From: Octopus vulgaris
Lineage: Eukaryota
NCBI GenBank assembly: GCA_951406725.2
Contig: OX597839.1
Location: 17,174,001 to 17,238,000 of the forward strand
DNA: 64,000 bases
Direction of reading: 5' to 3'
A model generated the notes under the pieces. It was not told the DNA's origin and did no database searches. It was given only the letters and a program-made list of their open reading frames with translations. This document shows positions 41,758 through 42,396 of this stretch, in pieces; within the stretch, counting starts at the first letter, position 1, and every line of letters starts with the position of its first letter. The translations under genes were made by a program, and so were the position numbers.

Positions 41758-42396
41758 GGATCTTTTCGGTTTGAACGGCAGTTTTTTAAAATAATTTCCA
41801 CATAACTAAACACTTTTAAACTTCGTATACTGGTAGAAAGTGTTTATAAAACATCTTTTTCTCTTGGCTTTATTGAGAAAATTCTATAGTTTGTAAGATA
41901 TTTGTTGTTTTTTTTCTTCAATTTCTGCAATTTCAACCAATCAATGACGTTTATTGAGGTGAAAACATTCTGTTGCCGTGTGAATATGTTCCTCGTTTAA
42001 GAAACAGATTGGGTTTATTTACATTTCTGAAGAAAAAAAGATACCATTCCCCCACCCCTAACCCTAACCCTAAAACAGATTGAAATGCAATAGATCGATT
42101 CTAGGGTCATAATTATGAGTGACAATTTCATATGACACCTCTAGAAAAAACCGAAAAGATCCAAACTCACTATATAGCAGTAAAAGATATGTAGAAATGG
42201 TTCATTTCTGACCAGATATCGATATTGAGGCAATTCTTTCCCAGATCTATTTTGAAGATATAGCAAATATTATTAGCCCGTTTGTCACATCCATTTTTTG
42301 TCACGTACGTCACACCACGATACTAGGGTCATAATTATGGGTGACAATTTCATATGACACCGCTAGGAAAAACTGCCGTTCAAACCGAAAAGATCC
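41758..42396 (+). mobile_element. Composite family D MITE with two right ends and 157 bp of captured DNA
   Basis: Outer TSD ttcagttt/ttaagttt. Internal extra terminus at 42162. Confidence 0.9.

Follow-up and report, generated by a model that had tools for sequence, protein, structure and literature searches.

Background

Two routes by which chromosomal DNA comes to lie inside a transposable element have been described that are close to the case presented here. Single-copy Pack-TIR elements are explained by transposition-independent gap filling and have a median size of 224 bp (Tan et al. 2021, PMC8277862). Repair-mediated duplications are captures of the SDSA type, 50-600 bp long, with donors that mostly lie less than 5 kb away (Pace et al. 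2009, PMC2671141). A third system, the DUP-TRP/INV-DUP rearrangements, involves kb-long inverted repeats that are 98-99.9% identical and copy-number change over tens to hundreds of kb (Grochowski et al. 2024, PMC11293582). The comparisons below refer to the portions of these papers that were consulted. The locus of interest is a composite MITE within a window of 64,000 nucleotides (positions 17174001-17238000 of contig C26 in G000, an assembly of 2.8 Gb in 227 contigs), and it is likely to be a real and well-resolved instance of mechanisms that are already known.

The composite resembles Pack-TIR captures in that a TIR element holds an insert of more than 100 bp with a source in cis, about 2 bp of microhomology and a single copy, and in that capture probably came long after insertion with little or no loss of the TE (PMC8277862). 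Its internal non-self sequence (157 bp inside 41758-42396, in a class defined by 100-5000 bp) lies between the ends of one element and has a unique parental copy at the threshold of at least 90%, with one other match at 100% and the next best at 85%. It differs in that entry appears to be by long homology with a sibling of the same family, in that the insert opens with the sibling's end, and in that an old repeat was captured and not a gene. The Pack-TIR pipeline drops sources with a TE within 100 bp, and here the parental copy adjoins the donor MITE (PMC8277862); the composite thus works like a Pack-TIR element but is outside the definition of Tan et al. (2021). With repair-mediated duplications it shares chromosomal DNA captured in a broken TE and microhomology at a junction (PMC2671141): the two halves rejoin in register around an insert of at least 50 bp that has one genomic source, and the junction shows its marks (a 2-bp CG, no TSD of the insert) and no polyA. 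Its donor, at 24.5 kb, falls in the rarer distant class rather than the proximal class within 5 kb, and the donors located in this study lie at 16-199 kb as compared with mostly under 5 kb in the published set. The filter of Pace et al. rejects a TE half above 95% of consensus, which is how the composite appears, and the consulted portions of that paper report no orientation bias of donors (PMC2671141). Both published pipelines, as described there and in PMC8277862, filter out the sibling-primed form, for which no description was found in the part of the literature that was searched.

The DUP-TRP/INV-DUP events offer a different likeness, with a first switch by homology of inverted repeats in cis and a second one by 1-9 bp of microhomology (PMC11293582). 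In contrast to these, the composite involves a 410-bp MITE pair that is 94% identical, an immediate return and a 222-bp insert only; instead of a copy-number change, nothing beyond the MITE itself links the two loci except the 222-bp inverted pair.

The MITE family

The window contains ~10 complete or almost complete copies of a 410-bp MITE with GG termini, 29-bp TIRs and 8-bp TSDs, and the 24-bp core of its TIR has 12,065 exact matches in G000. Among 38 full copies, sampled from 1.2 Mb of genome tiles and the window, divergence from the majority sequence averages 3.8% (range 1.9-7.1%), the closest pair is 2.7% apart, and the TSDs of 26 agree at 7-8 of 8 positions. Judged by this divergence the family looks old, and nothing found suggests current mobility.

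These features fit Merlin (IS1595-like) non-autonomous elements as they are described in the consulted portions of PMC8101967, with GG termini, TIRs of 24-462 bp (a range that includes 29 bp) and 8-bp TSDs; the MITE also has the combination of GG termini and an 8-9 bp TSD that is used to recognize Merlin. The Merlin transposase profile PF12762 (DDE_Tnp_IS1595) has 150 matches in G000, but a transposase with the ends of the MITE was not found, since none of the best 30 of these 150 loci is bounded by its TIR, and the superfamily of the MITE is for this reason not established. The consulted portions of PMC13282606 likewise contain no mention of the family. Merlin-type transposase frames of 308 aa without stops are present at four loci (L070-L073), and at L094 an 820-bp perfect inverted repeat surrounds one transposase match; these are possibly young elements with other TIRs.

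Some copies of the MITE show other alterations. The window copy at 3385-3774 is interrupted at about 3554-3617 by a 64-bp unrelated piece that starts with TTGA repeats, and MITE ends, with or without their own flank, have been amplified as short tandem arrays at several places among the matches listed (Table 1).

Structure and source of the composite

One MITE of the window (the recipient) contains a patch, 42098-42319, that is identical at 221 of 222 positions to the reverse complement of 17531-17752, a segment of a sibling MITE (the donor) and its flank that lies 24.5 kb away on the same contig in the opposite orientation (Table 1). The last 179 bp of the patch (42141-42319, corresponding to 17531-17709) match without a difference. 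An earlier note on this DNA, made from the sequence alone, had reported the exact 157-bp match of the flank, including the donor TSD gtgagttt, and this is borne out, with gtgagttt standing on both sides of the donor MITE. The note had also described the 65 bp that precede the flank as sharing private variants of the donor. The variants are there (donor alleles at 42099 and 42118, and a 12-bp TIR deletion), together with one mismatch that the note had missed, a T at 42140 where the donor has G, the family majority base. They are private in combination only: G000 has 38 places with both SNP variants and 7 with the TIR-deletion motif, none of 30 fetched SNP-variant loci has the deletion, and both SNPs occur in the donor alone among the 7 deletion loci. 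The donor is accordingly the only one of the loci examined with the full set, and the variants are diagnostic as a set and not singly, because the SNP pair and the deletion each occur elsewhere. The deletion is found in 7 otherwise different copies (L031-L037, on C1, C2 (2), C5, C7, C11 and C26) and probably reflects recurrent slippage between short A-run repeats.

Table 1. Positions of the recipient and donor features in the window, and of related loci elsewhere in G000
Feature	Position or distance	Strand	Remarks
Recipient left TSD TTCAGTTT	41750..41757	+	8-bp TSD is the family norm
Recipient MITE, own left part	41758..42097	+	29-bp left TIR is 41758-41786
G-quadruplex-type motif (candidate)	42049..42070	-	found by regex; four G-tracts, telomere-like repeats, inside MITE
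Donor-derived MITE end, 65 bp	42098..42162	+	17688-17752 reversed
Donor flank, 157 bp	42163..42319	+	exact reverse complement of 17531-17687; opens with donor TSD
CG microhomology at return junction	42318..42319	+	common to 42096-42097
Recipient MITE, own right end	42320..42396	+	right TIR intact, 42368-42396
Recipient right TSD TTAAGTTT	42397..42404	+	7/8 against left TSD
Copied donor flank	17531..17687	-	includes donor TSD 17680-17687; old repeat runs on beyond here, not at recipient
Donor MITE	17688..18096	-	inverted relative to recipient; 12-bp deletion in copied TIR; second TSD 18097-18104
Composites with outer TSD 7-8 of 8	L113, L139, L189, L192, L197, L199, L201, L203
Composite L138			TSD matches only with one-base shift
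L138 donor	15.6 kb		genome-wide search, one near-identical source
L113 donor	199 kb		genome-wide search, one near-identical source
L139 donor	67 kb		genome-wide search, one near-identical source
L189 donor	157 kb		neighbourhood fetch
Short tandem arrays of MITE ends	L147 (C28:25.587 Mb), L132-L134 (C17:12.815 Mb), C20:12.469 Mb, C27:10.47 and 11.19 Mb, C29:30.123 Mb

The recipient's own left part shows 6.2% divergence from the donor over the aligned bases, and at 42076 and 42088 the recipient has family-majority alleles where the donor has its own, which places the left switch in 42089-42098. The return junction lies at the MITE position where the recipient sequence had been left and passes through a 2-bp CG microhomology, as the earlier note had it; a 2-bp microhomology is, taken alone, within chance. 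When 42098-42319 is taken out of the alignment of window copies, a complete MITE is left in register with nothing lost or duplicated, with perfect 29-bp TIRs and with outer TSDs (TTCAGTTT and TTAAGTTT) that agree at 7 of 8 positions, in keeping with the claim that the recipient has retained its own outer TSD. The insert itself is not bounded by an 8-bp TSD and has no polyA/T tail.

No hairpin is predicted at the switch point (z = -0.72, 0.51 and 1.39), and the candidate G-quadruplex-type motif ends about 27 bp to its left. A strong 86-bp hairpin with nested arms (41596-41681; z = -4.65, 0 of 200 shuffles) lies 76 bp to the left of the recipient, with no second copy among the 40 candidates scored. 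On the other side, at 48178-49065 (+), an open frame matches a Forkhead domain over its first half (PF00250, E 1e-17, profile positions 2-50 of 88) and is probably a first coding exon followed by an intron. It is likely to begin about 5.8 kb to the right of the composite and may be FoxJ2/3-like. At 29310-29915 (-) there is a zf-RVT match (PF13966, E 2e-8) in a retroelement remnant.

Direction and age of the copying

A search of G000 with the 157 bp gave 36 matches, two of them at 100% (donor and recipient) and 34 at 69-85%, and on account of these further matches the sequence is assigned to an older repeat. The direction of copying was read from 28 diverged copies of this repeat (L003-L030). 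At the donor site the alignment continues past the end of the 157 bp in 20 of the 28, and in 12 its start lies 15 bp or more outside the opposite end of the donor MITE, so that it crosses the insertion point; at the recipient, every alignment ends within the 157 bp. The old repeat thus continues at the donor and never at the recipient, so that the donor side is the original. By these alignments the donor MITE sits inside an old dispersed repeat from which the recipient received a cut-out, and the "host DNA" into which read-through had been proposed to extend is, besides being 157 bp of donor flank, a piece of that repeat.

The patch differs from its source at no more than 1 of 222 positions (0.45%), as compared with the family mean of 3.8%, which suggests that capture took place long after the family had spread; by this measure the patch is far younger than the MITE family. 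The composite had also been called potentially mobile, and formally its TIRs are intact; against mobility stand the age of the family, the lack of its TIR at the 30 Merlin loci, and the fact that no second composite exists among the 36 candidate matches, all of which were scored and only two of which are exact. Dispersed composites with new TSDs, which characterize multicopy mobile Pack elements, were likewise not found in this genome-wide search, for which the earlier note had called.

Other composites in the genome

A search pattern in which a TIR end leads, at a distance of 30-280 bp, back to sequence from the right part of the MITE has 147 matches in G000, and its mirror image has 441; the matches listed are concentrated on the smaller contigs C27-C30. 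From the first 100 matches of each set, 50 and 40 loci were examined with some overlap, 30 per set being taken automatically and the rest selected by inspection for the presence of unrelated sequence. Tandem duplications and nested copies account for most of them. Nine other composites, with an unrelated insert and a retained outer TSD, were recognized among the about 90 loci examined (Table 1). Those set aside include L140, L141, L145, L146, L148, L150, L151, L186, L198, L202 and others with a mismatched or unreadable outer TSD (L151 has a nearby inverted source at about 1 kb), and L123, L142, L143, L171 and L176, in each of which a MITE end and its own flank are simply duplicated in tandem.

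Donors were located for four of the nine (L138, L113, L139 and L189), and in each case the source flanks an inverted sibling MITE of the same contig. The copied flank stretches are 54-276 bases long and contain 1-2 mismatches, and in three of the four the exit microhomologies are 4, 3 and 0 bp. L138 and L113 show no donor alleles ahead of the TIR and carry a duplication of 73-99 bp of the MITE end; at L139 and L189 the first MITE end is a poor match to donor and tail alike. The insert of L138 returns at an ATCGAT palindrome within 4 bases of the MITE position used in the window (42320), and since the search pattern favours returns near the equivalent of 42320 a clustering there is not established. 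For L192 and L197 no donor lies within 100 kb on either side, L199 and L201 have only partial matches of 88-95% that are not tied to a TIR, and for L203, whose insert is a repeat, none was located among the 40 scored of 2769 candidates.

How the insert might have been made

That the patch was copied from the sibling by some kind of template switch, during break repair or during replication, is very probable in view of the donor alleles and the 221/222 identity that start in exact register inside the recipient. We lean towards break repair as the setting. A break at about 42096-42097 in the recipient MITE would have left one end that invaded the inverted sibling 24.5 kb away, guided by a homologous stretch of about 340 bp at 94% identity whose final 9 bases match perfectly. 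The new strand would have been extended across the sibling's terminal 65 bp, deleted TIR included, and on into 157 bp of flank, and the released strand would then have been joined to the other broken end by the 2-bp CG match. Overall, this would be a one-sided SDSA closed by microhomology end-joining, and would have needed no transposase. Experiments on break repair are known to yield one-sided invasions of this kind with closure by end-joining. The cis bias, the microhomology of about 2 bp and the single copy match what the consulted portions of PMC8277862 and PMC2671141 describe for Pack-TIR gap filling and repair-mediated duplication. The interpretation given in the earlier note is supported as to source, direction, entry by homology and exit by microhomology; a break as the starting point is not readable from the product, from which a two-ended break and a switch at a stalled replication fork cannot be told apart. 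Break repair accounts less well for two observations: the inverted orientation of all five located donors is not expected from plain SDSA, and the other composites with donors are less clean.

The inverted geometry is better explained by a switch at the level of the fork, in which a stalled nascent strand, with no two-ended break, jumps to the inverted sibling (at the other fork of its replication bubble, for instance), copies 222 bp and returns by way of the CG, in what would be a miniature of the two-switch DUP-TRP/INV-DUP events. We regard this as possible for the window case, if on the unlikely side. The five located donors, at 15.6, 24.5, 67, 157 and 199 kb on the same contig, are all inverted, with four pairs pointing apart and one towards each other; the one-sided chance of this is 1/32 if both orientations are equally available, and the nearby MITE copies are about balanced (15 plus, 14 minus). 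The duplications at L138 and L113 would suit a backward return, and junctions at inverted repeats formed by homology first and by microhomology second have been described (PMC11293582, consulted portions). However, five cases is a small number set beside five further donors that were not located, the donor of L189 came from a fetch in cis only, the source of L140 (outer TSD unreadable) lies in the same orientation 1.2 kb away at 96%, and the window case lacks a recipient duplication, as would follow from a clean break.

An assembly or haplotype-mixing artefact, with the insert built from donor reads that perhaps came from the other haplotype, is improbable and keeps its small weight because no run confirmed the junction. 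The flank is identical at 157 of 157 positions, and no independent read or contig crosses 42319/42320 in the runs examined. Logan contigs of runs X1, X2, X17 and X18 were compared over 41300-42430, where placement was swamped by MITE copies; none of the pieces listed for these runs crosses the junction, and the left flank of the recipient has parts with little or no cover in all four, holes that prove nothing. Run X1 has three pieces over 42132-42338, none of which extends beyond 42319 on the recipient side, and the raw runs X21-X23 placed 0 reads there from ~3% of each, a sample too thin for a test. The four best runs contain a fraction of 0.74-0.77 of the words, which fits either absence or pruning, and short junction contigs beside high-copy repeats may well be pruned. 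A 655-bp contig of X1 matches 42122-42319 without a difference, including the T at 42140, and continues into the donor flank with one further SNP; the match of the X2 contig starts at 42141 only. As an independent run joins the T to the deleted TIR and the donor flank, the T is not a polishing error. Either it is the donor allele in some haplotypes, so that the patch would be a perfect copy of another haplotype (an allele that a second haplotype might also have supplied in an artefact), or X1 holds both loci and the contig joins them. Against an artefact, base-exact entry in register and a lossless return would be unlike a haplotype switch across an inversion, the 157 bp are on no alternative contig, and diverged analogues exist at four other loci, whose 1-2 mismatches in the copied flank indicate that such structures are not copies of identical reads.

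An origin by transposase, through end-bypass transduction (a model described in the consulted portions of PMC8277862) or nested insertion of a donor fragment with its flank, is very hard to credit: the copied TIR, damaged by its 12-bp deletion, is of a kind that could be bypassed, but the insert lacks the left 345 bp and the other TIR of the donor, begins in exact homologous register with no 8-bp TSD, and leaves the donor in place with both TSDs, in a family that looks much older than the patch. Equally remote is a 222-bp circle, closed in the donor at the CG that conceivably permits it at both ends of the copied stretch and integrated by a single crossover in the shared 65 bp, since such a crossover would split the donor alleles between both MITE ends, whereas all of them, from 42099 (the second base) onward, lie in the first end and the tail has none; only a crossover exactly at the junction would escape this objection.

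Implications

As a single event, the composite is ordinary repair debris, with no captured gene and no spread seen. Its donor-specific alleles give the point of entry, the tract length and the exit at base resolution, and the thousands of copies of the MITE offer a ready genome-wide assay for further events. What is new is the existence of nine other composites of the same outline, with all five located donors, the one in the window included, inverted and in cis. The interest lies mainly in this apparent orientation bias among five located donors. If it holds across the genome, it might serve to decide between fork switching and break repair as the origin of captures internal to transposable elements, and would reveal a route by which TIR elements gain sequence that current screens miss.

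It is a speculative and rather doubtful generalization that, in this genome, template switches into inverted siblings at distances of 16-200 kb, on the scale of replicons, are primed time and again by a high-copy MITE, which in this way copies the sibling flanks into itself. If true, such repeated priming would constitute a route of capture that screens for Pack-TIR elements and for repair-mediated duplications filter out, and a geometry that is exclusively inverted and points mostly outward would preserve a trace of past switching between sister replication forks.
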